Of a stretch of DNA of 20,000 nucleotides, positions 3 through 20,000 are shown one piece after another (the first letter of the stretch is position 1; each line of letters opens with the position of its first letter). The notes below the pieces were generated by a model, which saw only the letters and a program-made list of their open reading frames with translations, was not told where the DNA came from and searched no databases. The position numbers and the translations under genes were made by a program. This DNA comes from an uncultured virus (IMG/VR IMGVR_UViG_3300044634_002018). Lineage: Duplodnaviria > Heunggongvirae > Uroviricota > Caudoviricetes. The stretch is from the IMG/VR virus record IMGVR_UViG_3300044634_002018; one strand, 5' to 3'.

Positions 3-3000
3 TTACAAGTTTTAGGTGCTGCTTCTCAACCGGGTGTGACTAAATTAGGCCCTACAATTGCCCCTTCTGGTCCTAATGGTGGATTGATTAGTAACGATAC
101 TTTATACTTAGCACCTGCTGATGACATATACAAAGGGGTTATTAGACTTGCTGGTGACTTAGATTTACCAGCAAATGCTCCTGTTGTCACAGGTTTTTAC
201 GGAAGAGATTTAGTAAGTACAGCACCTACTGATGGACAAGTTTACGCTTGGAACAGTACTCTAAGTAGATGGGTTCCAACTACTCCAAGTGCAGGAGGAC
301 TTACTGACCTTTCAATAGCAAACAGAACAGCAAATAACTTAGATGTAGTATCTTCTACGGGAACAGATGCTACTTTGCCATTTGCTACCAATTTACTTGC
401 AGGTTTACTCACTGGAGGAGATAAGGCAAAACTTGATACTCTTAATAATCAGTCAATAAGTGCTGGAACAGGAATTAGTGTGTTAAGGACTGGACAAAAT
501 TACCAAGTAACAAACACAGGAGATCTTTCCAATACTAATGAATTGCAAACAATTTCTTACAGTGCACCTACTATTACTTTAAGTAATGGTGGTGGGTCTT
601 TTAATATTCCTCAAGGCACAGTTACAAATGTTTCTGCAACTCCTTCCAATGGGATAACTACAACAATTAACAATCCGGGGACTACTCCTGAATTAGTCAT
701 AGGCTTAGGGGCTATTACTCCTACTTCTGTAAATGCTTCTGGGACAATAGCAGGTTCTAATTTAAGCGGAACTAACACAGGAGATAATTCTCCCAACTCT
801 TTATACAGTGGTTTAGTGACTAATCAACCTGCCAATCTTAGTGTAACAGGCACTGCTTCTCCACTCACTCTAAATAGTAGTGATGGCACAGATGTGACTA
901 TATCAGGAGGAGCAGGTGTAGGATTGGTTGGGACTAGTTCATCCATTCAAATAGTAAATACTCTTCCAGAAAATACCACTATTTTAGACGGAACTACTAT
1001 TGATCTTACCCAGACAGGAGGACAAATAACAGCCGAGATTAAACAACAGGGAGCCACAAGTGGACAAGTATTAAGTTGGGATGGTTCAAATTGGTCTCCC
1101 AGTACTCCCAGTTCTGGAGTGACTGATTTATCTGTAAGTAACAGGACTACCACTACACTTGATGTACTTTCAAACACTGGTGCTGATGCTACACTTCCTT
1201 TTGCCACTAATTTACTAGCGGGATTGTTGGTAGCAGATGATAAAACTAAACTAGACAATATCACAGTAACAAGCCCAGTTAACTTAAACACGCTGGCTAC
1301 AAATAGTCACGTTCCAGTCACAATCACAGGGGAAACTTACATAACTCTAGCAGGTCAAGTTCTAACTGCTAACCAGATCAACTCAACTAATATAGCAAAC
1401 GGAACTATTCTTTATGCTGATATAAACCAGAACGGAGCAACAAATAATCAATCATTTAGATGGAATGGATCTGCATGGGTTAATTACACCACTGTAACAA
1501 GTTTAACTGCAACCCCAAGTACAGTAAATGTTGGTTTAGATTTTAATGCTGGTGCAGCAAGTGGCCCTGTAATTCTAGCAGCAAATGCAAGCAGAGCAGG
1601 TGTATTAACTGCTGCTTTGTGGAGTAAACTTGACACCCTTAATAATCAAAGAGTACTAGCAGGAACAGGAATTGGAGTGGTTAAAGTAGGACAAGACTAC
1701 ACAGTAACTAATAATGCCCCTGACCAAACTGTGACTATTACAGGTGCAACAGGTACTTATCCTAACTTTACTTTACCAACTGTTGACGGCTCTGAAACGA
1801 AAGTAAATTCTGGAACCAATATCTCAGTAACAGGTGCTGGTACAATAGCAAGTCCTTACGTGGTAAATAACTCTGCACCAGAATCTACTACTGTAACAGA
1901 TGGAACCACCATTAATCTAACGAAGACTGGTAATGATATTACGGCTGAGTTACAACAACAATCAGCAACTACTGGTCAAGTTCTTAAATGGAATGGAACT
2001 GCATGGATTCCTCAAAACGATAATGTAGGTTCTGTTACTACTAATAATTTATTAGGGACAGATCGAATAGATGTAGTAAATGGTACAGGAGCAATTCTAG
2101 GTGCTTCCCCTGTTACTATTGATGTTATAGAATCAGGATTAAATTCTTCAAGTATTCTCATTACAGATACAGGAGGTTATTTTACCATAGATAATATCAA
2201 TGCTGCTCTCCAGCAGTTAGGTGCTAACAACCATGCACCTTTGACTGTCACAGACGGAACTATAATTGATTTTACTCTCACGGGACAAAACTTAACCGCC
2301 ACGATTTTATCAGGTTCTATAACTAACACAGATTTAGCAGCATCAGGAGCCACTACTAATCAGGTTCTGGCTTTTAACGGAACTAACTGGGTTCCAACAA
2401 CACCTAGTTCTGGTATTACTGACCTTTCAGTTGCCAATAGAACTACAACCACTTTAGATGTTTTATCCAACACAGGCACAGACGCTACAATTCCTGCCGC
2501 TACTAATCTCTTAGCAGGTTTGATGATAAGTGCAGATAAAGCAAAATCAGATTTTATTACTGTTACACAAGCAGTAGATTTAGATGCTATTGAATTAAGT
2601 AGTCACTCACCAGTAACAAAAACAGGAGCAAGTTATCTTAGTCTTTCTGGTCAAGCACTTACTGCTAATCTTATTGGTGCTGGTGATCTATCTAGTATGG
2701 GAGCAGCATCAGATCAGGTTATGAAATGGAATGGTGCCACTTGGATTCCAACTTCCTTGCCAACAGATTCTTTATATAAAGTTAGCACTGTTTCAAGTTT
2801 TTCTAATTCAGCAATTTACAGTAAATGGGAAACAGGTCGAGTCGTTTCAACAGACGGATTCTATACTTCTGGAGATAATGGCGGAGCAAATTACATTATA
2901 GAAGCAAGTGGAACAGTTGATAATATCGTTATATTTGCTGTTGGCTCACGGAGGGCAAGGTTGCTACCAAATACCGATGGGGGCGTTAATTTCTTCCAAT

Positions 3001-6000
3001 TGGGTTGCATCAAAAACGACGCAATTGCAGACGACGAAAGATTGCAAAAAGGGATAGATGTGTTTAACAATATATATTGCTTTGACAACACTGCAAAGTT
3101 TATCTTTTCTAAACCGCTTGAATTAAAAAGTAATACAAAAATACAACTAGGTAGATCCACAACAATTGAAAAGAATAACGATTGGGCTGCCTTGATGTTG
3201 TGGAATGACGGAGAGAATAACAGTCGAGCCCCAGACTCAAATATTGTAATATTGGGTGGAATATGGGATAAACAATCACCTCCGGGAGAAACTTACACTT
3301 TTGGTACATTTAATCCATCTTCTTATAGTGGAGCACTTGTCGATTATGGCTTTTGTTTTACAAACTGCAAGAACTTGCGGGTAGAGAACTTGTCTGTTTT
3401 AAATTGTTCAAAATACGCTATGAGTCTCAATGAACAAGTAAAACCGTATATTCATAACATTTACTTGGATAGTTACTCTGACGGTATTGATTTTATCGGC
3501 AAAAGCGAAGACATTGTAATTGATGGAGTTACAGGGAGAACACACGACGATTTTGTTGGGATTTTCGCTACGGCATGGACAACAAATATTATTGGTACGA
3601 TGGGGAATATTAATAATGTTTCCATAAGCAATATTTATCCAGACGATAACACTACTTCAAATACAATTGTAATAGGTGCTGGTAACAACGGGGGAGTGCC
3701 TTATACCATTAGCAATGTCAATATAACGAATGTATCTAGTAGCAGAACTAATAACCCTACAATAAAAGTTGCTCAGTATGGGGTAGTTGGTGACCCTCTT
3801 ACTGAAACATTAACAGGAGGCGTAGTAAATGGGATGAATATATCTAATATTACTGCTGGTGTCGGCGCAGCGGCTATAATCGAAATGGGTATAGACACGA
3901 TAAAGAATGTAAACATTTCTAATGTTTTGTTTAAAAATAGCCGTCCTTCCGCAGGTATAATCATAAATGACGGGTATCTGGATAATATAAACATATCTAA
4001 TTACGTAGCAGAGACAACAACAAACGGTTTGTATATTGCCGATTCCGTAAATATAAAGAACATCTCATTTTCTGATTGTAACATAACAGTTAATGCTACA
4101 AATAAATCAGCATTTACAATAGAGAATGACACCTGTTCTTTCCTTATTGACAATTGCGTTTTTAGGACTAATGGTACTTCCGACAATGCGGCGTTGTTAC
4201 TAAAGGGAAAAGATAATCGTTACGGGATTTCAAATACAAGATTTTTCAACGCTAATCAGGCAATAAATGACTTTGGTGCAAGAGACACTTTTTTAGTATC
4301 AAATGTAGTATTTAACACGCCCATTGGCATCTATTCTGGTAGTGCCAGTTCTTCTACAATAATAAAAGCAAGTACTTATTCGCACAACAGTACAGATGTC
4401 CCTAAAAAAACCTTTTTGCGCGGTAGTGTAAATTTCCCTGTATTGCAAACAGGGAATGACGAAAATTTATTTGAAGTTACAACATCTATTAGCATTTACG
4501 ATATTCCTATTGAAATGCCAATCGGAACGACTTATCGTATTACAAATAGCAACACTGTTCCGATTGTAATAGCACTGAGTGGTTCAGAAGTCTTCGCGTC
4601 AGGATCGAATAATTTTTTTTTGCCTTCAAATGCAACAGTTACGGCAAAAAGGTTTTCTAATACTCTATGGCGAATAGTAGGCTCTGGGACAAGCGAGAAC
4701 TTTTTACCAACTGGGGTCTCAGGCCAAACTCTTAGTTATGATGCAAGTAATCGAATTATTGCTAACAATCAATTGGAAAATACTTCTGGCAGCCTTAAAA
4801 CAAATGTGCGCCTGACCACGCAATCTGGCATTACAGCTAATAATATGGGTGAAAATATTATTATAACCTCAGACGGAACCACTGGGAATAATGGTGTTTT
4901 ATACGGAACCGTTGGCGGTGCTTTCTCTTTATCTAATCAGGCCAAAACGAGAGAGCTTTTAAATACGTCCACAGGTTGGAATTTTATAGGGAATGTAGGT
5001 CATGGTATATTGGCCCCCTTAGCCCCTATTCATATAAAATCTTCATCCAACCCAAATGCTATAATAGAGTTCGATGGTTTTGGTACCATTGCCTCTCCGG
5101 GATTACCCGCTCTTAAATTCAAGGCAGGTACATTCGATGGAGCAAGGATTGAGACAGACTTTAGATTCAATTCTGGAGTCAACTACACCTCTTTGCGGTT
5201 TTGGGTCAACAACTCGTCTGGAACCCTACAAAATAAATTCACGATGAATGGGCAAAATGGATGGTTTGGTATTGGAGTAATTGACCCTACGGCAGCATTA
5301 GATGTCATTGGTGATGTTAAGTCTGATTCATGGGTATCAGCAGGTAACAGGCTTTTATTCGCAAACTCAACGGGTGTTGCAAACGAAACCTCAATAGATC
5401 CAGCCCACGTATTAGTTATTGGCTCTGCTTACGGAGGTGATGTGTTTGGCACTTATGATAATTTGCAATTAGATACTGCTGTTGTTGAAACTATTAATAT
5501 TGCAGATGATGCTATTACACAGGATAAGATAGCAAATGACGCTGTTGGCTCTGCTCAAATTGCTAACTCAGCAGTAGGTAGTTCTGAGATTATAAACGGT
5601 AGTGTTGGAGCATTAGACCTTGCTGCGCAGTCTGCAACAGTTGGACAAGTTTTAACTTATGCAGGAGCAGGTATAGGTTGGACACCAGCAACACCTTCTG
5701 GTGGCGGGGGTGGCGGTTCATTACCAACTGGTACAAGCACTCAGACTTTAAGATATGACGCAACTAATACCATAGTTGCTACAAGTCAAATTCAAGCAGA
5801 TACTACTGTTGGTATAGGTGGAGCAGCAGCATCTGATGAACTTACGATTTACGGAACAACTAAATCAATAGGATCGCTCAAAATAGAAGGCACTGGATTA
5901 AACTCTGGAGTTTGGGTTACTAATACTACTCCAATCACGGGAATCACTTGGTATATGTTACAAGATAATAGTGGATTTTTATACTTTCAAGAATCAGCGG

Positions 6001-6401
6001 GGAATACTGTACCATTGATTTTAAGAGGTAATCTAGTTGAAACTACAAACACTTTGGTAAAAGACGCTATCTATAAAGACATAACAACCGTAACGGGCAT
6101 TACAACATATCAAGTTACTGGATTAGAAAGTTTAATTAAACTTACAACAGGTATAGACCTTACAACAATAAATCTCCCAGAGATTGTTGCAAGTGCGCCG
6201 AGTTTTAATCAAGTTACACCGGGTTTTATACTTACTTTAGTAGTCAAGTCTCCAAATGCTGTAATAATTAACAGAGCAGGTGCCGATACTTTTATTCAGC
6301 ATGCTGCTACTGGATCATACACTTCATTTCCAATCTCTGCCAATACTGTTGCAATTTTAGAGTTAATTGCTTTAGAAGATAACCTTTGGTCAATAAAATA
6401 A
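3..6401 (+). CDS. Large phage tail fibre/tailspike protein (5'-truncated) with repetitive shaft, central beta-helix depolymerase-like domain and C-terminal fibre repeats
   Basis: Frame is open back to the window edge (LQVLGAASQPGVTKLG...), so GTG at 36 is probably internal. T/S/G/N-rich, with repeated GQVLxWNGxxWxP motifs, a tailspike-type TDGFYTSGDNGGA motif, N/I-rich beta-helix rungs containing SDGIDF...HDD, GxVGIG-type fibre motifs and IADDAITQDKIANDAVGSAQI repeats. Lies upstream of the lysis genes. Confidence 0.85.
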   Translation, partial: LQVLGAASQPGVTKLGPTIAPSGPNGGLISNDTLYLAPADDIYKGVIRLAGDLDLPANAPVVTGFYGRDLVSTAPTDGQVYAWNSTLSRWVPTTPSAGGLTDLSIANRTANNLDVVSSTGTDATLPFATNLLAGLLTGGDKAKLDTLNNQSISAGTGISVLRTGQNYQVTNTGDLSNTNELQTISYSAPTITLSNGGGSFNIPQGTVTNVSATPSNGITTTINNPGTTPELVIGLGAITPTSVNASGTIAGSNLSGTNTGDNSPNSLYSGLVTNQPANLSVTGTASPLTLNSSDGTDVTISGGAGVGLVGTSSSIQIVNTLPENTTILDGTTIDLTQTGGQITAEIKQQGATSGQVLSWDGSNWSPSTPSSGVTDLSVSNRTTTTLDVLSNTGADATLPFATNLLAGLLVADDKTKLDNITVTSPVNLNTLATNSHVPVTITGETYITLAGQVLTANQINSTNIANGTILYADINQNGATNNQSFRWNGSAWVNYTTVTSLTATPSTVNVGLDFNAGAASGPVILAANASRAGVLTAALWSKLDTLNNQRVLAGTGIGVVKVGQDYTVTNNAPDQTVTITGATGTYPNFTLPTVDGSETKVNSGTNISVTGAGTIASPYVVNNSAPESTTVTDGTTINLTKTGNDITAELQQQSATTGQVLKWNGTAWIPQNDNVGSVTTNNLLGTDRIDVVNGTGAILGASPVTIDVIESGLNSSSILITDTGGYFTIDNINAALQQLGANNHAPLTVTDGTIIDFTLTGQNLTATILSGSITNTDLAASGATTNQVLAFNGTNWVPTTPSSGITDLSVANRTTTTLDVLSNTGTDATIPAATNLLAGLMISADKAKSDFITVTQAVDLDAIELSSHSPVTKTGASYLSLSGQALTANLIGAGDLSSMGAASDQVMKWNGATWIPTSLPTDSLYKVSTVSSFSNSAIYSKWETGRVVSTDGFYTSGDNGGANYIIEASGTVDNIVIFAVGSRRARLLPNTDGGVNFFQLGCIKNDAIADDERLQKGIDVFNNIYCFDNTAKFIFSKPLELKSNTKIQLGRSTTIEKNNDWAALMLWNDGENNSRAPDSNIVILGGIWDKQSPPGETYTFGTFNPSSYSGALVDYGFCFTNCKNLRVENLSVLNCSKYAMSLNEQVKPYIHNIYLDSYSDGIDFIGKSEDIVIDGVTGRTHDDFVGIFATAWTTNIIGTMGNINNVSISNIYPDDNTTSNTIVIGAGNNGGVPYTISNVNITNVSSSRTNNPTIKVAQYGVVGDPLTETLTGGVVNGMNISNITAGVGAAAIIEMGIDTIKNVNISNVLFKNSRPSAGIIINDGYLDNINISNYVAETTTNGLYIADSVNIKNISFSDCNITVNATNKSAFTIENDTCSFLIDNCVFRTNGTSDNAALLLKGKDNRYGISNTRFFNANQAINDFGARDTFLVSNVVFNTPIGIYSGSASSSTIIKASTYSHNSTDVPKKTFLRGSVNFPVLQTGNDENLFEVTTSISIYDIPIEMPIGTTYRITNSNTVPIVIALSGSEVFASGSNNFFLPSNATVTAKRFSNTLWRIVGSGTSENFLPTGVSGQTLSYDASNRIIANNQLENTSGSLKTNVRLTTQSGITANNMGENIIITSDGTTGNNGVLYGTVGGAFSLSNQAKTRELLNTSTGWNFIGNVGHGILAPLAPIHIKSSSNPNAIIEFDGFGTIASPGLPALKFKAGTFDGARIETDFRFNSGVNYTSLRFWVNNSSGTLQNKFTMNGQNGWFGIGVIDPTAALDVIGDVKSDSWVSAGNRLLFANSTGVANETSIDPAHVLVIGSAYGGDVFGTYDNLQLDTAVVETINIADDAITQDKIANDAVGSAQIANSAVGSSEIINGSVGALDLAAQSATVGQVLTYAGAGIGWTPATPSGGGGGGSLPTGTSTQTLRYDATNTIVATSQIQADTTVGIGGAAASDELTIYGTTKSIGSLKIEGTGLNSGVWVTNTTPITGITWYMLQDNSGFLYFQESAGNTVPLILRGNLVETTNTLVKDAIYKDITTVTGITTYQVTGLESLIKLTTGIDLTTINLPEIVASAPSFNQVTPGFILTLVVKSPNAVIINRAGADTFIQHAATGSYTSFPISANTVAILELIALEDNLWSIK
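297..2552 (+). repeat. Three dispersed 141-bp (47-aa) repeats in the fibre shaft at 297-437, 1116-1256 and 2412-2552
   Basis: GLTDLSIANRTANNLDVVSSTGTDATLPFATNLLAGLLTGGDKAKLD / GVTDLSVSNRTTTTLDVLSNTGADATLPFATNLLAGLLVADDKTKLD / GITDLSVANRTTTTLDVLSNTGTDATIPAATNLLAGLMISADKAKSD, each preceded by a WxPxTPS linker. Confidence 0.95.
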
Positions 6402-6407
6402 CATAAT

Positions 6408-7331
6408 ATGAAATACTTAATTTTAATACTTAGTTTAATAACTACAAATTTATTAGGGCAATCAGTTGCTCCGGGAGTACCTGAGACAACTTATGAAGAA
6501 CAACAATTTACTTCTCCTGTTGCTAATTTTTCAGTAACAGTCCCTTCTTGGGCAAAAGAAGTCACTATTTATGTAGTAGGTGCAGGAGGAGGTGGAGGTT
6601 CTGGAAGACAAGGTTTAACTTCTACTGTTCGTTGTGGCGGTGGAGGTGGTGCAGGTGGAAACCTTTCTACTGGAACATTCACCCTTTCTAATTTAGGAAA
6701 CCCCGGGTTCTTATACGTTAATGTTGGAACAGGTGGTACTGGTGGAGCAGCGCAAGCAACACCTTCTACAAATGGTACTGCTGGCGGAAATGGTGGTGCT
6801 TCATCAGTTGGAACAACACCAAATTCTTTAAACTTATTTATAAATGCAAATGGTGGGTTTGGAGGTAATGGTGGAACTGCTACAAATGGAACTGCTGGAA
6901 CTGCTAGTCCTTTGGGTCAGTTTATAGGGTCTGCTGGTGGAGCAGCAAGCACAACAGGTGCAATTGGTTCTTCTGGTGCAACTGCTGGAACTGGTGCTGG
7001 CGGTGGAGGTGGTGCAGGGAGTGGTATCACATCCACAAATGCTTTTAGTGCATCAGGAGCAGGTGGGTCTGCTAATGCAGGTCAGCAAGCAGGTGGGGCT
7101 AGTGCAACAGCAGGAGCAGGTGCAGATGGTGGAGTTTCTCCAAGCACAGGTGCTTACTACGCTGGTGCTGGTGCTGGTGGTGGAAGTTCTTCTGCCACAA
7201 CTGCTGGCAGAGGTGGTGATGCTCTTAGAGGTGGAGGTGGCGGAGGTGGTGCTGCTTCTTTGAATGGATTTAATTCTGGTAGAGGAGGTAATGGAGGAAA
7301 TGGATATGTATTAATAATTTTTAGAAAATAA
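6408..7331 (+). CDS. Glycine-rich tail-associated protein with an N-terminal signal-peptide-like segment
   Basis: VTIYVVGAGGGGGSG...GGGGGAGG...VNVGTGGTGG...GGNGGNGYVLI is typical of phage Gly-rich (polyglycine) domains. N-terminus is MKYLILILSLITTNLLG-Q. Confidence 0.8.
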   Translation: MKYLILILSLITTNLLGQSVAPGVPETTYEEQQFTSPVANFSVTVPSWAKEVTIYVVGAGGGGGSGRQGLTSTVRCGGGGGAGGNLSTGTFTLSNLGNPGFLYVNVGTGGTGGAAQATPSTNGTAGGNGGASSVGTTPNSLNLFINANGGFGGNGGTATNGTAGTASPLGQFIGSAGGAASTTGAIGSSGATAGTGAGGGGGAGSGITSTNAFSASGAGGSANAGQQAGGASATAGAGADGGVSPSTGAYYAGAGAGGGSSSATTAGRGGDALRGGGGGGGAASLNGFNSGRGGNGGNGYVLIIFRK

Positions 7332-7332
7332 T

Positions 7333-7827
7333 ATGAGAACTATAATTCATAAAAAGGGAAATCATGCCTGTAATCTTTATTTACCTAAGGTTTGGTTTAG
7401 AAAACCAGAAATAGTAATAAACTTTGAGTTTGATTCAAGTGCGGAATATTATCACAAAAATGGTTATGCAGGTATTAATAAACTAGGTGGGGTAGATTTT
7501 TCACCCGGTACTCCTGCAAACAAAGGCTGGTCTTACATGATAGGTTGGTCTTGGGACACAGATAAAATAGGAATCTACTGGTATGTAAACAACCCAAAAG
7601 GAGATCATTTATCTGGGTTGCTCCAATCTTTGCCTTTAATTAAAGAAAATAATAAATTAATGTGTCGGGGACAAGCAAAAATTAACTTTGAAGGAAATAA
7701 GGCTTTATTTAGTAGTAAAAATAATTATACCTTTGCAGATGGTAAAACAACCAATTTTTGCAGAGAAATAAGACCTTGGTTTGGAGGTATTTATCCTGCT
7801 CCACACGACATAAAAATAATTATATGA
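7333..7827 (+). CDS. Hypothetical aromatic-rich beta protein, possibly a minimal lectin/PL14-like jelly-roll
   Basis: 164-aa ORF starting 1 nt after the previous stop. Motifs NKLGG, SYMIGWSW, IYWYV and PWFGG...PHD. Confidence 0.7.
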   Translation: MRTIIHKKGNHACNLYLPKVWFRKPEIVINFEFDSSAEYYHKNGYAGINKLGGVDFSPGTPANKGWSYMIGWSWDTDKIGIYWYVNNPKGDHLSGLLQSLPLIKENNKLMCRGQAKINFEGNKALFSSKNNYTFADGKTTNFCREIRPWFGGIYPAPHDIKIII

Positions 7828-8180
7828 CTAGAATCGTTGAATTTATAGACAGCATCCTGTCTTTCCTTGTCCCTTATAAAGATGCTATAATGGGAGGTGC
7901 AGTATATTTTATATACTCGCATGTGTATTTAAAAAGAGAAACTGTGTCCAATTTCTTAGAATTTTTAATGGGGGTGATATTCTCGGTGTATGCAAGCCCT
8001 GAAATTGTAGAGCATTTTTCTTTTCTTAACATTTCCTTTGTTTCATTTATATGCGGTTTAATGGGAATGACTATAATGAGGCTTGCTTTAGAGTTTCCTT
8101 GGAAAGAAACACTTAACAAGATTGTTTCTGAGATTTTAGATACCTTTGCAAAAAGTAACAACAACAATAAAGAAAAATAA
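7824..8180 (+). CDS. Putative holin (about 3 hydrophobic segments, charged C-terminus)
   Basis: ATG at 7824 forms an ATGA overlap with the upstream stop and is preferred over the track start at 7758. Hydrophobic stretches AIMGGAVYFIYSHVYL, FLEFLMGVIFSVYA and FSFLNISFVSFICGLMGMTIM. Located upstream of the amidase. Confidence 0.65.
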   Translation: MTRIVEFIDSILSFLVPYKDAIMGGAVYFIYSHVYLKRETVSNFLEFLMGVIFSVYASPEIVEHFSFLNISFVSFICGLMGMTIMRLALEFPWKETLNKIVSEILDTFAKSNNNNKEK

Positions 8181-8182
8181 TT

Positions 8183-8437
8183 ATGGAAAATGTGCAAATA
8201 TTTCTTGCTTTTTATCTTGACAAACTCAAGATAAGCAACCCTATTACTTATGTGGTAGTTCAAACATTAATTTGTGGGACTTTACTTTTGTTTAGCACTG
8301 ACGTAATTAACATCAATCAAAGTGTGGACAACACTATTATTATTATCTTAGGAAGTATAGTGGCAGGGATTTCACCAAGGACTTCTCAAAAAGCAGCCGA
8401 GTACCAGTTTCCTGAAATAGATCAATCTAACAAATGA
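8183..8437 (+). CDS. Putative holin/antiholin (2 TM)
   Basis: 84 aa with ITYVVVQTLICGTLLLF and TIIIILGSIVAGI segments. ATGA overlap with the endolysin. Confidence 0.6.
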   Translation: MENVQIFLAFYLDKLKISNPITYVVVQTLICGTLLLFSTDVININQSVDNTIIIILGSIVAGISPRTSQKAAEYQFPEIDQSNK

Positions 8438-9102
8438 AAAGTGAAGAAGTAATCCTCGCAAATTACGGGTTTGCACTCACTAATTACAATGGAATAGAAG
8501 TTTATTCAAACAATAAACTCACTAAGCACTTCTTTAATGAGGCGGGTAGAAAATCCAAAATAGTAATTCATCACACTGCTGGCGGGTTTGAAGGGGATCT
8601 TATTACTCTTTTATCTAGCACAGTAAGTGTTGCTTTTCTTATTTCTCCTCAAGGAAAAATAGTCATGCTGCACCATCCTAGATTTTGGGCGTGGCATCTG
8701 GGTAAAGGTGCTTTAGGAGGTAATGAGGCTCAATCTCGTATAAGTATAGGAATAGAACTGAGCAATTGGGGATTTCTAGTACGTAAAGGAGATATTCTTT
8801 TCAATTACTTAGGAAGACCACATTGTAAAATGACTGACACACATTTATACGAGGAAAGCAAACCTTGGAAAAGATTTGGCAATGTAAATGTTAGATACTT
8901 CTCAAAGTACACTGAGGCTCAATATGTAAGCCTTAAATTGATTAAGAACAAACTTTGTGCCCTTTACGCAATCCCTAATGTAAGATACACTAAAGGATAT
9001 TCTAATGAAGTCATTAATTTCAAAGGCATCACAACTCATACAGATTTTAGGCTGAACAAGTTTGACTTGTCTCCTATTTTTGATTGGGACAAAATTATGT
9101 AA
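8434..9102 (+). CDS. Endolysin, N-acetylmuramoyl-L-alanine amidase (Amidase_2 family)
   Basis: KIVIHHTAG, FLISPQGKI, AWHLG, SIGIEL, YTEAQY, ITTHTD and KFD follow the Zn-amidase motif order. Confidence 0.9.
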   Translation: MKSEEVILANYGFALTNYNGIEVYSNNKLTKHFFNEAGRKSKIVIHHTAGGFEGDLITLLSSTVSVAFLISPQGKIVMLHHPRFWAWHLGKGALGGNEAQSRISIGIELSNWGFLVRKGDILFNYLGRPHCKMTDTHLYEESKPWKRFGNVNVRYFSKYTEAQYVSLKLIKNKLCALYAIPNVRYTKGYSNEVINFKGITTHTDFRLNKFDLSPIFDWDKIM

Positions 9103-9117
9103 ACCAACAGGTATAAT

Positions 9118-9819
9118 ATGAAATACGCAATTCTTATGGGTCTGAACAAAATAGACCCTGAATATTATGGAACTGATGGAGCCCTGAGAGGTTGTATCAA
9201 TGATGTAAACACTTGGATAAATCTGATAAAACCGGATGAATTTCAAGTCCTTTTGAACGAAGAAGCAACTCCTGAAAATTTCCTAGGGTGTTTACACTCG
9301 GTTAAAGTAAAAGCAGTTGAGGGAGACACCATTTACATTATGTATTCAGGTCATGGAACTCAAGTCCCCTCAACCTCGAAATCTGAGAAGGATGAATTGG
9401 ATGAAGCATTTTGCTTTTACAATCGGATTTTCTTGGACAAGAATTTTAACAACAACTTGGCCACTATCAAAAAAGGTATCAAAGTTGTGGGAATTTTTGA
9501 CTGTTGCTTTAGTGGTGGAGTCCATAGAAATGCTTTAGGAATTAGAAAATCCATTAAAGCCACTTTACCTATTCCGGCTCCTATTCCTATTAAATCTAGG
9601 ATTTTGAAGTGTAGTTTTCTTTCCATAAACGCATCTGCTGAGTCACAACCAGCCTTAGACGGTGAGGTAAATGGATTGTTTACGGAGACTATGTTTAAGA
9701 CTTACACAGGGCATCCTTTGCTTAGTTGGACCAAAGCAGCCTCTGAATTGGTCACACAACAAAAAATTAACTTTAAATCCTATGGTACTAAGTTTGATTG
9801 GAGTACCTTTGTACTGTAA
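9118..9819 (+). CDS. Metacaspase / caspase-family cysteine protease (peptidase C14)
   Basis: KYAILMGLN, LRGCINDV, LLNEEAT, YSGHGTQ (catalytic His, about 9346-9357), DEAF, FDCCFSG (catalytic Cys, about 9499-9507) and ASAESQ...NGLFT (p10-like region). Confidence 0.9.
   Translation: MKYAILMGLNKIDPEYYGTDGALRGCINDVNTWINLIKPDEFQVLLNEEATPENFLGCLHSVKVKAVEGDTIYIMYSGHGTQVPSTSKSEKDELDEAFCFYNRIFLDKNFNNNLATIKKGIKVVGIFDCCFSGGVHRNALGIRKSIKATLPIPAPIPIKSRILKCSFLSINASAESQPALDGEVNGLFTETMFKTYTGHPLLSWTKAASELVTQQKINFKSYGTKFDWSTFVL
9804..9813 (+). promoter_or_regulatory. Candidate Bacteroidota-type -7 promoter element (TAnnTTTG) upstream of the 9840 gene
   Basis: TACCTTTGTA about 27 nt before the ATG at 9840. No clear -33 TTG at canonical spacing. 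Confidence 0.4.
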
Positions 9820-9839
9820 TTTTTAAATTTTACACAATT

Positions 9840-10214
9840 ATGGAAAAATTTGGTATTATTCAGACAAGCGAGATGGTAACATTTGCTTGTAGGCTTGTAA
9901 GTGCAGGTACATCTGCCTTGGAAGATGGTAAAGTAAACATGTTTGATGCAGCCTTTGTCCTATCCCCCCTAAAGGTAGCAGGTGCAGCCATTAAAGATGC
10001 AAACCTTATTCCTAGTGAACTAGGTGATCTTTCCGCAGCAGAAGTTGCAGAAGTTTCAGCACTCATCCAGAGTGAACTAGAACTTCGTAATGACCTTGCA
10101 GAAGAACTCACACTTGAGTTTGTTAAATTGGCTGGTCAGTTGGCTGTGACTTTGCGTAAAGTACGTGAGGCACGTTTAAAACCAACAGACCCAGTATTAA
10201 ATCCTGATGCGTAA
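9840..10214 (+). CDS. Hypothetical alpha-helical protein (124 aa), last gene of the late/lysis block
   Basis: ATG at 9840 after an AT-rich leader (the track start at 9798 is a TTG overlapping the caspase). Ala/Leu/Glu-rich amphipathic helices and a basic C-terminal RKVREARLK. Confidence 0.75.
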   Translation: MEKFGIIQTSEMVTFACRLVSAGTSALEDGKVNMFDAAFVLSPLKVAGAAIKDANLIPSELGDLSAAEVAEVSALIQSELELRNDLAEELTLEFVKLAGQLAVTLRKVREARLKPTDPVLNPDA

Positions 10215-10245: not shown

Positions 10246-10285
10246 AGAAAGGGAGTGCCTGTATAAGACACCCCCTTTCTTTTTT
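10246..10285. terminator. Intrinsic terminator 2 between convergent gene blocks, possibly bidirectional
   Basis: AGAAAGGGAGTGCCT-GTATA-AGACACCCCCTTTCT followed by a T-run. The 15-bp stem has two mismatches on + that become G:U pairs on -. Confidence 0.75.
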
Positions 10286-10709
10286 AACCTTCTACCATTG
10301 GGATTATTTCCGCTTCTGGTACAACCTCTGGTACAACCTCTGGTGCTGGCATTTCACTCAAATACTTAAATTCACTAGGATCAATCCCAAAAACAGGCAT
10401 TAACCTTTTAATGTCTGCTTCATCACGAATCAAAATAAAAAAATGGGTTTGAGTGGATTTGTTGACAAATTTAATCTCAGCCTCACCTTTACGGTTCATT
10501 TTGATTCTTCCCTCAGAATCCACTGTACCGTTAACAGGATAAGATTTAAAACCTTGCTCTGTTGGTAAATCTGTAAGAATTTGGAGAAATTTCACAAACC
10601 CTTCATCATTTTTAACAGGGGTTACTTGTGCCACATTTTCTAAATTGAGAGCACAAATAGTTTCTTGTCCATTATTTTCTTGGACAAATTTGTAATTGAT
10701 AAACTTCAT
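10284..10709 (-). CDS. Hypothetical phage protein with a Pro/Glu/Val-rich tail
   Basis: 141-aa ORF with an ATGA overlap with the upstream gene. Confidence 0.75.
   Translation of the reverse strand: MKFINYKFVQENNGQETICALNLENVAQVTPVKNDEGFVKFLQILTDLPTEQGFKSYPVNGTVDSEGRIKMNRKGEAEIKFVNKSTQTHFFILIRDEADIKRLMPVFGIDPSEFKYLSEMPAPEVVPEVVPEAEIIPMVEG
10315..10344. repeat. 12-bp tandem repeat (TCTGGTACAACC x2.5) encoding PEVV-PEVV-PE
   Basis: Direct inspection. Confidence 0.85.
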
Positions 10710-10974: not shown

Positions 10975-11319
10975 TTATATTTTATCATCCAATAATCTGT
11001 TTAATCTACTGATAAATTCTTTTTCCAAAACTGTGAGATTTATTAGTCTCTTTTTCCAATCTCCGTTACAAAGGTATGCAAAAATTATGGTTCCTTTGTG
11101 ACCTTCGTATTTGTATGCAGGAAAAATAAAATCCAACCAAACCTTTTTGTATTTTCTAACTCGGTATTTTCTCCAAGTAAAAGATTCAATAGGGTCAATG
11201 CCAGTTTCTGCTTTTGCTGCCAAATACATAGTAAGCAAGTCTGGTTTGGACATTAGCACAAAAATGTTAAAAATCTGTTCCATGTCTGCGTAGTCTTTAA
11301 ATTTTAAGTTTTTTTCCAT
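10975..11319 (-). CDS. Hypothetical phage protein
   Basis: 114-aa ORF, fits the tight gene packing. Confidence 0.7.
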   Translation of the reverse strand: MEKNLKFKDYADMEQIFNIFVLMSKPDLLTMYLAAKAETGIDPIESFTWRKYRVRKYKKVWLDFIFPAYKYEGHKGTIIFAYLCNGDWKKRLINLTVLEKEFISRLNRLLDDKI

Positions 11320-11720
11320 ATATTTTTATATGTTACAAATATTCCCAAAAGGTAAACATCTGCTAGGTTGAAAATGACCCACTTTGTCCCGAAGAGTTGA
11401 ATAGGTATCATGTCTGTTACACTTCCGTAAATTGCTCGTTCAGTTAAGTTAGACAAAGCCCCTATAATCCATAGCCAATGCCAGAACAAATGCTCTTTGT
11501 CTACTTTGACAATAATACAAAACACTGCTGCCAGTACTATTGCTATAAAGTAGTGAAGAGTTATTGGGAGAGCATGTTGACAAGGATAAAGAAAACCTAC
11601 CCATTCTTCTGGTTGTTTTCTTGCCCACATTTTTAAGAGAAAATCTGCATTTGCCAAAGCAAACAGTAAAAAAAATCCCTTCTTACCTATTGTTAACGTA
11701 GATATGAGCCGTTGTATCAT
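11304..11720 (-). CDS. lspA: Divergent lipoprotein signal peptidase II (peptidase A8) homolog
   Basis: ADFLLKMWA resembles DQxxK of TM1. IGALSNLTER resembles GAxGNxxDR. GSVTDMI resembles GxVVDFI with the catalytic Asp. WVIFNLADV resembles FNxAD with the second catalytic Asp. Four hydrophobic segments. Confidence 0.8.
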   Translation of the reverse strand: MIQRLISTLTIGKKGFFLLFALANADFLLKMWARKQPEEWVGFLYPCQHALPITLHYFIAIVLAAVFCIIVKVDKEHLFWHWLWIIGALSNLTERAIYGSVTDMIPIQLFGTKWVIFNLADVYLLGIFVTYKNIWKKT

Positions 11721-11895
11721 CGAATTTTAAGTTTAAAGGTTCTGGATTTTCTGGAATTTCTATATCTCTCTCTGGGTCCCATACTGCTATTTTCTTTTGT
11801 ACATTTCTCATAGCCACCCATTCTTCGTCAGTAATATGATCTGGCTTTTCAAGAACTAAGTGTGGGTGTTGTCTGTGATGGTGTCTTTCAAACAT
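11683..11895 (-). CDS. Hypothetical small protein with a His-rich N-terminus
   Basis: 70-aa ORF filling the space between neighbours, starting MFERHHHRQHPH. Confidence 0.55.
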   Translation of the reverse strand: MFERHHHRQHPHLVLEKPDHITDEEWVAMRNVQKKIAVWDPERDIEIPENPEPLNLKFDDTTAHIYVNNR

Positions 11896-12326
11896 GTTAT
11901 TAAATTTAGTGAGTAAAGTAATCCTGATTCTAATGCTTGTTGATGTGTTGGAAACATTCCATATTCTTCGGGGGAATCAAGCCAATTTACTTTCTTTGCT
12001 CTTGCTTCAATTCGTTTCATAAGCAGTAGGTTGTGCCCTCTAAAATCATTATGTTTGCTTGAAATCCACATTTCATACCAATCTTTTTCTAATTGAGGAT
12101 GACTATGAAAATTTACAGTTATGTGAATATTGTGTACTTCACGTAACCATTTTTGAAGTAAGAACTGACTAGGAGCGTAAGCAACTCTCTCATAACTCAT
12201 TGAACCTCTCATACCTTTAGTTGGGTTTAAAGTTCCAGTTTGGTCATACCAATGTTTAGTCTTCCAGTCAAAACCTTTTTCAGCAGCAAGTTTTGCTACT
12301 TCAAACCCTGTAATATCTTCTTTCAT
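11856..12326 (-). CDS. Hypothetical phage protein (FExAKLAxEKG family, paralog 1)
   Basis: FEVAKLAAEKGF...PSQFLLQKWLREVHNIHI...ALESGLLYSLNLI. Confidence 0.8.
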   Translation of the reverse strand: MKEDITGFEVAKLAAEKGFDWKTKHWYDQTGTLNPTKGMRGSMSYERVAYAPSQFLLQKWLREVHNIHITVNFHSHPQLEKDWYEMWISSKHNDFRGHNLLLMKRIEARAKKVNWLDSPEEYGMFPTHQQALESGLLYSLNLITCLKDTITDNTHT

Positions 12327-12652
12327 ATTAATTCTAATGATTTAAATAGTGCTTTTTCTAATGCTATTTCGTAAGAAGCACAACCATGATTATCCGTGTA
12401 AGTAATGCGTTTTGCATTTAAGTACTTATTTTTTTCATTGCCTTGGAAATAAAGTATTTCATAATGATAATCAAAATCTTCATCAAATTCTCCCGTGTAC
12501 AATATTGCTATGTGAATGTCATGTTCACATCTTAACCACCTTTGTAGAACACTCTGAATTGGGACACTGACTAGAGTGCCCCCTATATACTCAAACTTAT
12601 AACCTTTTTCTTCTGCTAGTTTTGCAGTTTCAAATTTAATAGTTTCTTCCAT
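12323..12652 (-). CDS. Hypothetical phage protein (FExAKLAxEKG family, paralog 2)
   Basis: FETAKLAEEKGY...PIQSVLQRWLRCEHDIHI...ALEKALFKSLELI, with an ATGA overlap. Confidence 0.8.
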   Translation of the reverse strand: MEETIKFETAKLAEEKGYKFEYIGGTLVSVPIQSVLQRWLRCEHDIHIAILYTGEFDEDFDYHYEILYFQGNEKNKYLNAKRITYTDNHGCASYEIALEKALFKSLELI

Positions 12653-12861: not shown

Positions 12862-13324
12862 CAGTGGGTTTTATAAAATTCCAAAAATCCCAACCAAATG
12901 GTTCTATGGGTTGCCTTTTAACCATGCAAACATGTAAACGTGTAATCTCTTCTTCCGCTATTTCATTGGAATAAATCCGTAAAGTTTTTCCATCGTTTGT
13001 TACCCCATTTCTAGTTAAAGTAATCCCAGTCCCAAACTGCCCATTAGTAATAATTCCAGAACTATAACCAATACTAAGTCCTCTGTCTTTGAATATTTCA
13101 CATTTTACTGGTAGCCAAGTAGTGTCTTTGTTTACACAAAAATAAGAAGTCAATACTCCTTCTTTATTGTAAACCGGGTAGCATTCTTTGGTTACTTTTC
13201 CATATTGGGTTACTGTATCTGGAACCAGTTCGTTGCAATAAGCCTCGTACTTAATGATGTAGTCTTTAATAGACTGTGTATTTGCTGTAAAAGCAAATAA
13301 TAAAAATAATGCTGTTAATCTCAT
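12797..13324 (-). CDS. Hypothetical exported protein with a signal peptide
   Basis: ATG at 13324 forms an ATGA overlap with the upstream stop and is preferred over the track start at 13465. N-terminus MRLTALFLLFAFTANT-QS. Several Cys that could form disulfides. Confidence 0.7.
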   Translation of the reverse strand: MRLTALFLLFAFTANTQSIKDYIIKYEAYCNELVPDTVTQYGKVTKECYPVYNKEGVLTSYFCVNKDTTWLPVKCEIFKDRGLSIGYSSGIITNGQFGTGITLTRNGVTNDGKTLRIYSNEIAEEEITRLHVCMVKRQPIEPFGWDFWNFIKPTDETIQVFLSLSKANRKYDSAF

Positions 13325-14322
13325 TTTCCTGTGTAGTTTAAATATTTTAAATATGAATTTCTGAACCCAAATAATTTGTTTTCTTGCGAGCCAAGCATCC
13401 AATCTCTGATTGTCCATTTTGCAGTTATGTACTCTTTTTCTGAAAGACCTTTTGATTCCACACACAGCCCATCTCCAAAATGATCTTCTAATTCTGTAAA
13501 TTCCCCCAACCAGTCTTTAAGTTCTGCAATTGTGTAATAGTCTCCTTCTTCTTTTACCCTTCTCTCTCCATCACTTTCTAAGCATTGTAAAAAGATTTTA
13601 TCAGGTATTACAAGGTCAGCCCCACAGTCTATTAGTTTGTTAATAGCAGCATAACCGTTTTTTGCAAATCCGTATTTTTTACAGTACTTTACATATTCAG
13701 TTATATTATCTGCCACTATTTTAACCTTGGATATTTTTTTAGAATTTTCATAATGTTCTAAAGCCAAATCCATGTTTTTAGAAAACCCTTGTCTCCTGTA
13801 ATAATCTTCAAATCCTTCTTCTTCCGTCATAGCGTACTGCTCTTTGTACCATTTTACCTGTTTAGCACAATTCCAAACTAATCCTTCAAGATTTTCTCCC
13901 ACTCCTACATTTCTTGTTATAAAGGAATCCAAGCCTACTCGAATGTAATCTACACCTGTTTTTGCCAATTCTAAAAAGGCTTCTTGGCTTCCTACATTAC
14001 CTGCCATTAAAATCATGTTATTTCCATGAATTTCTTTCATTTCTAATATAGTGGAGTGTAAAATCCTTGAAGCACCATTTTTCCAGTCTATGCAAATTTT
14101 AATAGATTGGTCTAAAGGTTCGGAATAATTTTCTATTAATTCTAATGGAGTTCTTAAAAGAAAATGATCTCTGTTGTCATACAACCCATCATTAGGTAAT
14201 ATGATGTTAATTCCCAACTGCTCAAACAGTGGGATATTTTTTTGGTTCAAAACTAAAGGTGTGGCTAGTAAAGGACAAGTAAAAGCCACTGTGTCTTCTT
14301 CATTAATTTTTGCGTGTTTCAT
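13321..14322 (-). CDS. IMP dehydrogenase / GMP reductase-fold protein with a degenerate active site
   Basis: ICIDWKNG resembles xxIDxAHG. LMAGNVGSQEAFLELAKTGVDYIRVG resembles IAGNVATxEGAxxLxxAGADxVKVG. ITRNVGVG resembles TTRxVxGVG. IVAD...INKLIDCGADLV resembles IIADGG...IxKALAxGADxV. The catalytic GxGPGSIC loop is replaced by GLDSFI. Confidence 0.75.
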   Translation of the reverse strand: MKHAKINEEDTVAFTCPLLATPLVLNQKNIPLFEQLGINIILPNDGLYDNRDHFLLRTPLELIENYSEPLDQSIKICIDWKNGASRILHSTILEMKEIHGNNMILMAGNVGSQEAFLELAKTGVDYIRVGLDSFITRNVGVGENLEGLVWNCAKQVKWYKEQYAMTEEEGFEDYYRRQGFSKNMDLALEHYENSKKISKVKIVADNITEYVKYCKKYGFAKNGYAAINKLIDCGADLVIPDKIFLQCLESDGERRVKEEGDYYTIAELKDWLGEFTELEDHFGDGLCVESKGLSEKEYITAKWTIRDWMLGSQENKLFGFRNSYLKYLNYTGK

Positions 14323-19359: not shown

Positions 19360-19635
19360 TTAATCTTCTGTTAAGTTTTTTAAATATTCCCCTACTTCTT
19401 TTTTACCTTCTTTTACTCCTTTTTCTACTCCTAACTCAAATGCTTGTTCCGCCAATATTCTTAAAACGTCTTTTAAAGTAGTTTTATCGTTATTACGTAT
19501 GCGAATTACTTGCCAATGACCTGAAAAATAAAATTCAACTTTTGCGTAAAGACCTTCTGTTTGATTAATATCTTTCTCTGTAAACAGAAACTCACATTCT
19601 ATAAGTTGATCTTGTAATTTTTTTGTTATGTTCAT
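19360..19635 (-). CDS. Hypothetical phage protein
   Basis: 91 aa with an ATGA overlap. Confidence 0.7.
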   Translation of the reverse strand: MNITKKLQDQLIECEFLFTEKDINQTEGLYAKVEFYFSGHWQVIRIRNNDKTTLKDVLRILAEQAFELGVEKGVKEGKKEVGEYLKNLTED

Positions 19636-20000
19636 GTGTGAAATAATTTATAGCATTGGACTTCTGTAATGAGTCCCTCTTGCACTAATAAGAAAATAAC
19701 CTTTTTCCAATCTACATAAGGTCTTTCAAGTGCAGGTCTTACAAGAGGTGTTCCTAGCGCGGAATCATCTATCATAAAATTTGCGTATGACTTAGGGGAA
19801 CTCGTCCAAGAAAGTTGAGTTGGATTAGTTTGAATCCCATATAAAGGTATGTCATGTTTCTTGAACCAGTTTACTGCTTCTGTGAGGTAATTACCTTTAG
19901 GAGTGTCACTCCTCATTGTAAAAAGAATAAGTTGATGCCCATTCTCTACTAAGGTTTTAAGAACTGGTACTGCTCCTATTTCTTCTCCTATTTCTGGAAA
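19632..20000 (-). CDS. HAD-superfamily hydrolase/phosphatase (5'-truncated by the window edge)
   Basis: Frame is open to the window end: FPEIGEEIGAVPVLKTLVENGHQLILFTMRS (motif II Thr), SPK (motif III Lys), MIDD (motif IV). The DxDGT motif I would lie outside the window. Confidence 0.8.
   Translation of the reverse strand, partial: FPEIGEEIGAVPVLKTLVENGHQLILFTMRSDTPKGNYLTEAVNWFKKHDIPLYGIQTNPTQLSWTSSPKSYANFMIDDSALGTPLVRPALERPYVDWKKVIFLLVQEGLITEVQCYKLFHT

Follow-up and report, generated by a model that had tools for sequence, protein, structure and literature searches.

A caspase-family protease is encoded directly behind the endolysin gene of an uncultured tailed phage (Caudoviricetes; IMG/VR record IMGVR_UViG_3300044634_002018), and by sequence and predicted fold it is an intact, minimal enzyme of the metacaspase/orthocaspase type. 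The stretch of DNA analysed here, referred to as the window, is 20,000 nucleotides (nt) long and is the reverse complement of the corresponding part of the complete virus record G001, a circular assembly of 131,429 bp that has a terminal repeat of 127 bp and a CheckV completeness of 100. The role that we favour, although we rate it below an even chance, is that of a late, Arg/Lys-specific executioner that acts at the time of lysis and is coupled to the wall hydrolase.

The protease gene comes second from last in a very long late operon, whose end occupies the + strand of the window: fibre genes are followed by a series of protein genes and by a terminator. The five + strand open reading frames (ORFs), the gene identities and the operon structure proposed in an initial annotation were borne out by ORF calls and by Pfam and PHROG searches. 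The genes of the cassette (sizes in amino acids, aa) and the terminator are as follows:

7824-8180, +: 118-aa holin-like membrane protein with hydrophobic segments and a weak phrog_2359 holin match
8183-8437, +: 84-aa small membrane protein with one clear hydrophobic segment; its stop codon overlaps the amidase start
8434-9102, +: 222-aa N-acetylmuramoyl-L-alanine amidase (endolysin), Amidase_2 PF01510, E 4.3e-10
9118-9819, +: 233-aa stand-alone Peptidase_C14 protease, PF00656, with His79 and Cys130
9840-10214, +: 124-aa acidic protein, all-helical in an AlphaFold 2 (AF2) model (confidence score pLDDT 94.6), from a large viral family without a name
10246-10286, +: intrinsic-terminator-like hairpin with a U6 run (RNA fold -18.2 kcal/mol, z -2.05)

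The spacing among the last five genes ranges from a 4-nt overlap to a 20-nt gap. The protease ATG lies 15 nt past the amidase stop and, as had been noted from the letters alone, nothing resembling a terminator separates the two: the region has two terminator-like sites, compared with 3.7 +/- 1.8 in shuffled sequences, and neither is located at this junction. The hairpin at 10246-10286 forms the end of the late operon, where converging minus-strand genes begin; 5 of 200 shuffles are equally good, and a consensus terminator scan missed the hairpin. Contigs from four other runs are fragmentary and give little information on variants; two of them run across the amidase/protease junction with no change, and the protease is skipped in none.

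Family, motifs and modelled fold of the protease

A search with the Peptidase_C14 model, suggested in the initial annotation as a check, identifies the family with 54.3 bits (PF00656, E 1.9e-14, cut-off 21.4) over residues 3-212 of 233, and with 53.7 bits on G001. The His and Cys residues that had been read as a catalytic dyad, H79 in SGHG and C130 in DCCFSG, are invariant in 17 of 17 aligned homologues and in all seven members of the phage clade introduced below. Other residues invariant among the 17 are D29 (GCIND), E90, D92 and E96 in an acidic loop, D128, Q177 and D181. The protease does stand alone, as had been claimed: the Pfam scan yields no second domain, there is no hydrophobic segment, and an export signal is absent, as it is from the amidase. 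No PHROG family matches the protein.

A profile built from the 17-homologue alignment finds GSU0716 of Geobacter sulfurreducens (PDB 3bij) at E 7.7e-79 and the yeast metacaspase Yca1 at E 6.6e-41, and the motif blocks GCxND, SGHG, DExDxxDE, DxCxSG and Q..xD are common to the protease family and both of these proteins. The AF2 model of the protease (pLDDT 85.9, predicted TM score 0.85) is of low confidence only at residues 132-151, right after the catalytic Cys. This is the position of the inter-subunit linker, and it contains Arg137, which is invariant within the phage clade. Foldseek places 3bij first (TM 0.83, E 1.2e-18, 26% identity) among 297 PDB chains at E <= 0.001, followed by TbMCA2, the Candida (CgMCA) and yeast (Yca1) metacaspases, AtMC9/AtMC4 and MALT1. 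D29 and D181 align with matching acidic blocks of Yca1 and GSU0716; in metacaspases these two conserved Asp residues presumably line the S1 pocket and confer Arg/Lys specificity, and the acidic DExDxxDE loop is one that we take to bind Ca2+. The traits of type I and type II metacaspases are not present, since there is no N-terminal prodomain and no long p20-p10 linker, only the ~20 low-confidence residues.

It is the family match, the conserved dyad and pocket motifs and the modelled fold that identify the protein, at the level of prediction, as an intact minimal metacaspase/orthocaspase-type enzyme. Because the catalytic and pocket residues remain unchanged across the phage clade, from 44% to 75% identity, its activity is probably under selection. 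We expect the enzyme to be active, Arg/Lys-directed and promiscuous.

The closest counterpart of known structure, GSU0716, is likewise a single-domain C14 protein. However, the phage protease is ~35-40 residues shorter in the linker after the Cys (233 vs ~270-285 aa) and is phage-borne, behind an endolysin, while the PDB names GSU0716 only as an uncharacterized protein. Eukaryotic metacaspases (Yca1, 4f6o; TbMCA2, 4af8; AtMC9; AtMC4) have the fold and motifs in common with the phage protease, at 14-20% identity in structure alignments.

Two bacterial defence systems offer a functional comparison. PCaspase, a C14 protease of the Haliangium ochraceum type III-B CRISPR / SAVED-CHAT system, is described as activated by a CHAT protease, upon which it becomes a promiscuous, arginine-directed executioner of broad specificity that kills the infected cell (10.1101/2023.06.23.546230). 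PsCaspase of type IV Thoeris, a caspase-family protease activated by a TIR-made nucleotide, is likewise portrayed as promiscuous and arginine-specific and as killing by mass proteolysis; its partner gene encodes a TIR protein, and a domain at its C-terminus is proposed to be the binding site of the signal molecule (10.1101/2024.10.24.620036). Unlike PsCaspase, the phage enzyme is a bare protease domain, and no TIR gene adjoins its own. Its cellular homologues adjoin CHAT-domain proteins, which is reminiscent of PCaspase as described, whereas a Pfam scan of the window finds no CHAT, SAVED, sigma-factor, kinase or PCi-like inhibitor gene. An adjacent CHAT, SAVED or TIR gene or a fused sensor, as is typical of defence executioners, has no Pfam match among the 34 window proteins. 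Neither neighbour of the protease has a Pfam match to gasdermin, and the downstream one is modelled as all-helical.

Gene neighbourhoods in phages and bacteria

In a collection of 5.8 billion proteins, the protease has 269 matches at E <= 0.001. Apart from its own cluster, just six are close to it (44-73% identity, 230-238 aa, all metagenomic; the next best is 34% identical), and the phage clade comprises seven 90%-identity clusters. Scans of IMG/VR with the protease and with the clade alignment gave no further relative. Among 50,697 deposited phage records there is a single relative, in the 485-kb uncultured phage LR745208.1 (29% identity), and tblastn with the C14 protein of that phage against these records returned only LR745208.1 itself.

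A metagenome scan recovered two short contigs, L002 and L003, that carry a protease of the close clade, 44% identical to that of the window. In L002, the C-terminal peptide of the upstream gene product is clearly homologous to the C-terminus of the window amidase, and the TGA of this gene overlaps the protease ATG (frame 3, by eye). A homologue of the 124-aa protein (49% identical) begins 6 nt past the protease stop, and then comes a converging gene with a Pro/Glu/Val repeat, of the same kind as in the window. Since L002 keeps the amidase-protease-helical order at such low protease identity, this order appears to have persisted over substantial divergence. In L003, the protease gene is followed by a 70-aa ORF (699-911, +) and then by the helical gene. 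This ORF scores 29.1 bits with the model of the Acb2/Tad1 hairpin domain (PF24729, cut-off 27) and is a candidate sponge for immune signalling nucleotides; by this match, the spot of the protease would also accept a known type of counter-defence gene. The basis for synteny is thus three loci (the window, L002 and L003) of one lineage.

Cellular relatives were scanned with one genome per species, which gave 416 of them, and neighbourhoods were taken from the best 80 loci, where identity to the phage protease is at most 37%. A homologue of the helical family or of the amidase is found in none of these 80. The following neighbours recur:

11 of 80 loci: ~196-aa Peptidase_M15_4 protein encoded immediately upstream, on the strand of the protease; Chitinophagales in every case (Niabella, Ferruginibacter and relatives)
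13 of 80 loci: giant CHAT protein of up to ~1900 aa, including 5 of the 11 M15 loci; TPR-S also present in the one scanned
5 of 80 loci: nSTAND1-beta-lactamase protein upstream
5 of 80 loci: ~1040-aa protein upstream, family not assigned

The M15-C14 pair (L037, L046, L048, L056, L066, L023, L025, L029, L032, L035 and L067) is followed, in the five loci with a giant CHAT protein, by the gene for that protein in converging orientation, and the Chitinophagales M15-C14(-CHAT) cluster is a candidate for a protease-cascade suicide or defence module. The M15 partner resembles the M15 peptidase of Flavobacterium phage FCV-1 (57% identity over residues 43-195), and its matches extend to 167 phage records, of which 146 belong to Flavobacterium phages. 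In FCV-1, the M15 gene comes after three small membrane proteins and before a lipoprotein with a C-terminal membrane segment, and this stretch looks like a lysis cassette. The bacterial partners have an extra basic N-terminal stretch of ~40-55 residues that the FCV-1 enzyme does not have.

In a maximum-likelihood tree of 73 rows (C14 ORFs of <200 aa or >420 aa were left out, and the tree comes with a long-branch warning), the seven phage proteins form a single clade with SH-aLRT 98, which is nested in a group of 37 rows with support 89. This group also contains a Chitinophagales clade of 19 rows (support 99), 10 of them M15-linked. A different arrangement is encountered in metagenomic loci: two of the three examined (L004-L006) have a TIR-SLOG-CHAT protein of ~1200 aa directly upstream of a ~270-aa stand-alone C14 protein (L004 1980-6582, L006 2307-6935), a layout that resembles an initiator CHAT and executioner caspase pair.

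The gene downstream of the protease has a distribution of its own. Its 124-aa product (pI 4.56; five helices in the model) belongs to a family for which a profile search of 1.84 billion representatives retrieves 717 clusters at E <= 1e-3 and 57 at E <= 1e-10, nearly all of 105-135 aa. Sixty members have no consistent Pfam or PHROG match, the ten that were checked are metagenomic proteins without a name, and viral sequences make up 93-95% of the nearest ESM Atlas clusters. Searches of PDB and BFVD with Foldseek give no meaningful fold match (best E 0.66-0.68), and the best hit of a wide VIA-align search (Z 5.7; flagellar-chaperone-like, generic bundles) is below the level that is meaningful for helical proteins. 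Two candidate identities, tail-assembly chaperone and DNA mimic, were considered and set aside, since only the size, acidity and helicity of the protein speak for them. No relative was found in IMG/VR scans, in tblastn searches of the phage records with three members, or among the ORFs of the FCV-1 cassette.

In a Bacteroidota sample, 5 of 401 genomes carry a member of the helical family, each within a prophage-like block; one of the five lies directly downstream of a Phage_lysozyme gene (PF00959, E 8.1e-50) and one follows a weak XhlA-like ORF. In one of the five, L106, a weak Acb2/Tad1 match (24.7 bits, below the cut-off) is located two genes from the family member. The helical proteins nearest to that of the window have in common a basic LRKxRExR stretch near the C-terminus; such pattern scans utilised narrower alignments, the broad ones being too diverse. 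The helical gene is thus a widespread viral gene that tends to adjoin lysis or accessory genes.

Possible functions of the protease

The main argument that the adjacency of amidase and protease is functional is that the same protease type is paired independently with a phage-type endolysin in bacteria. In the scenario that we tentatively prefer, a lake-water phage lineage would have inserted a gene of the GSU0716 / prokaryotic-caspase type between its endolysin gene and the widespread downstream viral gene. The protease would be made late, on one transcript with the holin-like proteins and the amidase, and in the relative L002 its translation would be coupled to that of the amidase. It would accumulate as a soluble cytoplasmic protein alongside the endolysin and, when or just before the holin fires, would cut many host proteins after basic residues, either while still in the cytoplasm or, after the holin lesion has opened, alongside the amidase in the envelope. 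The expected outcome would be a faster dismantling of the cell.

Canonical holin-endolysin-spanin cassettes, such as the apparent one of FCV-1 (gp13-gp20), likewise proceed from small membrane proteins to a wall hydrolase that is soluble, and they either close a block of structural genes or lie within it. In the window, the hydrolase is followed by a protease and an acidic helical protein and not by a spanin-like gene; the stretch of FCV-1 that was examined has no C14 gene, and its gp20 lipoprotein, with the C-terminal membrane segment, has no counterpart in the window. No description of a caspase gene in a phage lysis cassette was found in the texts inspected during a full-text literature search. 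A 2012 survey mentions phage-related metacaspase operons in Clostridium botulinum genomes (PMC3501461).

It is tempting to go further and to regard the caspase-family protease as a true effector of phage lysis, released or activated by the holin lesion (e.g., through an influx of external Ca2+ or because it can now reach the envelope) and cutting envelope or cytoplasmic proteins alongside the endolysin, with the same endolysin and caspase pair serving as a suicide module under CHAT control in Chitinophagales. We consider this extended proposal distinctly unlikely. If true, it would add a protease arm to phage lysis and would link phage lysis genes with caspase-type cell death in bacteria. Caspase-family proteases are known as death executioners in eukaryotes and, recently, in bacterial anti-phage systems, while here one is found on the side of the virus, in a lysis operon. 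Should the link be functional, phages would use regulated proteolysis at lysis, and a shared origin of phage lysis modules and bacterial suicide modules would be suggested.

Several observations weigh against a role in lysis. The adjacency of amidase and C14 genes is seen in two loci of one lineage only, so that common descent and not selection could account for it. In the tree, a sister relationship of the phage clade to the M15-linked Chitinophagales clade is not resolved. None of the five prophage contexts of the helical family has a C14 gene nearby, and none has a homologue of the window amidase; the protease is therefore outside the conserved core, and it looks like a lineage-specific insertion between endolysin and helical gene rather than a fixed partner. 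In LR745208.1, the C14 gene is not beside lysis genes and sits between genes for a 497-aa 2H/LigT phosphoesterase (L018 2909-4402) and an 823-aa VWA protein (L018 6594-9065). The ends of lysis operons are a common site for accessory genes, and in L003 the Acb2/Tad1-hairpin ORF sits between the protease and helical genes. In the comparison of neighbourhoods, which the initial annotation had put forward as a test of conserved linkage, the gene order is kept in L002, and the helical family in prophages and the jumbo-phage protease are each found outside it.

The lysis genes of the phage also bear on this question. The earlier statement that no spanin is recognisable holds within the cassette, where both genes 3' of the amidase lack a membrane segment and a scan found no lipobox start. 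Elsewhere in G001, spanin-like candidates are located ~45 kb away. A second lysis-like cluster (G001 84599-86562; L015 4599-6562, +), in the early/replication region, encodes:

114-aa lipobox protein, +
102-aa secreted protein, +
104-aa protein with an N-terminal membrane anchor and a helical (coiled-coil) tail, +
232-aa membrane-anchored endolysin-like protein, phrog_3513 E 9e-29, +

With its spanin-like candidates and a further endolysin-like gene, this phage shows no evident gap among the steps of lysis, a further point against a lysis role, and this second cluster weakens the idea that the protease substitutes for a missing spanin.

The strongest rival explanation is an anti-defence protease: a captured homologue of a host defence executioner would cut or out-compete immune proteins (e.g., those controlled by CHAT, TIR or STAND proteins), and the end of the late operon would be an accessory anti-defence island. 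We find it doubtful on balance, yet it deserves serious weight: at exactly the spot of the protease, a relative carries an Acb2/Tad1-like gene, and the data fit an island as well as they fit a role in lysis. The neighbours of cellular homologues point the same way (TIR-SLOG-CHAT in two of three metagenomic loci, the CHAT giants and the nSTAND1-beta-lactamase proteins among the 80), as do the weak Acb2/Tad1 match in L106 and the phosphoesterase of LR745208.1, whose weak Acb1 match (E 0.0031) means that the C14 gene of that phage may lie in a counter-defence neighbourhood. However, the protease gene shares its operon with genes for structure and lysis, and in L002 it is coupled by a start/stop overlap to the endolysin gene, while counter-defence genes are usually early. 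The 11 M15-linked bacterial loci point to wall hydrolysis and not to immunity alone. If the protease does serve counter-defence, it would be a protease-type anti-immune factor, also a little explored class. A passenger or auxiliary gene at a permissive insertion site, without a role in lysis (e.g., for manipulation of host physiology or superinfection exclusion), is unlikely. Virome papers do list metacaspase genes among auxiliary viral genes, with no mechanism or lysis link given (10.64898/2026.01.21.700432); the protease clade is small, and the site takes another insert in L003. The invariance of catalytic and pocket residues argues for selection on activity, though, and neither the start/stop overlap with the amidase gene in L002 nor the parallel M15-C14 pairs would be expected of a random passenger.

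The least probable of these readings, and in our view an improbable one, is that the protease times lysis by specific processing of a single phage protein, be it the holin, the 84-aa protein, the amidase or the helical protein. Tight linkage to the genes of all four is consistent with it, and the basic N-terminal stretch of the bacterial M15 partners could be a removable propeptide. The LRKxRExR stretch of the nearest helical proteins is also basic, and activation by cleavage is established for PCaspase and gasdermin systems (10.1101/2023.06.23.546230; 10.1101/2024.10.24.620036). On the other side, the helical family is found without the protease in five of five prophage contexts and comprises 717 clusters, compared with 7 for the phage protease clade; no conserved cleavage motif has been demonstrated, and the amidase has no obvious propeptide. 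The 124-aa protein is thus unlikely to be a dedicated target, as had been proposed for it, because it belongs to a broad viral family that is found without the protease. Maturation of virions by the protease was rejected, given that its gene lies well away from those for portal and capsid and that no PHROG head-protease family matches it. The link between caspase and lysis drawn in the initial annotation is therefore sustained in part, by the start/stop-overlapping synteny at 44% identity and by the M15-C14 pairs. The particular roles attached to it (gating a holin, activating the 124-aa protein, maturing tail proteins, destroying defence proteins) gained no direct support.

Other genes of the cassette and the phage genome

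The amidase also matches phrog_1794 (amidase, E 2.1e-8) and three endolysin PHROGs, and it is 24-39% identical to annotated amidases of 21 phage records; an IMG/VR scan with the amidase as query found no relative. The holin assignment of the 118-aa protein relies on weak matches to phrog_2359 (E 1.2e-4) and Phage_holin_3_1 (E 0.096), together with hydrophobic 19-residue windows between residues 44 and 91. The 84-aa protein has its hydrophobic window at residues 19-44 and no Pfam or PHROG match, and is possibly a second holin or antiholin. Three further genes precede the cassette in the operon:

3-6401, +: giant fibre gene, 2447 aa when complete
6408-7331, +: Gly_rich_2 protein with a hydrophobic N-terminal segment
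7333-7827, +: 164-aa protein; its stop is overlapped by the start of the 118-aa gene

Contigs of other runs show skips and inserted glycine-codon repeats in the Gly_rich_2 gene (joints 6601-7283, 6810-6992 and 6981-7230), so this gene is either variable in length or collapsed in the assembly.

G001 encodes elsewhere a portal protein, terminase, DNA polymerase, helicases, rIIA/rIIB and many giant structural ORFs, and is a large virulent-type tailed phage. The 24 runs that contain the phage are all lake-water or freshwater metagenomes, and none of those listed is an RNA run. Megablast of 6 kb of the window against the phage records gave nothing. The affinity of the nearest cellular protease homologues suggests that the host belongs to the Bacteroidota.

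Further genes lie on the minus strand of the window. A 138-aa homologue of lipoprotein signal peptidase II (11304-11720; PF01252, E 1.8e-11), uncommon in a phage, suggests processing of the phage's own or of host lipoproteins. Two adjacent ORFs (11856-12326 and 12323-12652) correspond to the N-terminal and C-terminal halves of phrog_12005 (E 2.4e-15 and 2e-14) and may represent a split or frameshifted gene. A fragment match to IMPDH/GMP reductase (13321-14322; PF00478, E 1.2e-7) and a phosphoheptose-isomerase-like match (19632-19916; phrog_1238, E 1e-11) are possible auxiliary metabolic genes. Outside the window, the large subunit of the terminase (G001 56700-59888; L013 16700-19888, -) is 1062 aa long, and its residues ~140-400 also match primase/helicase-loader P-loop PHROGs, so that it may be a fusion or contain an insertion.

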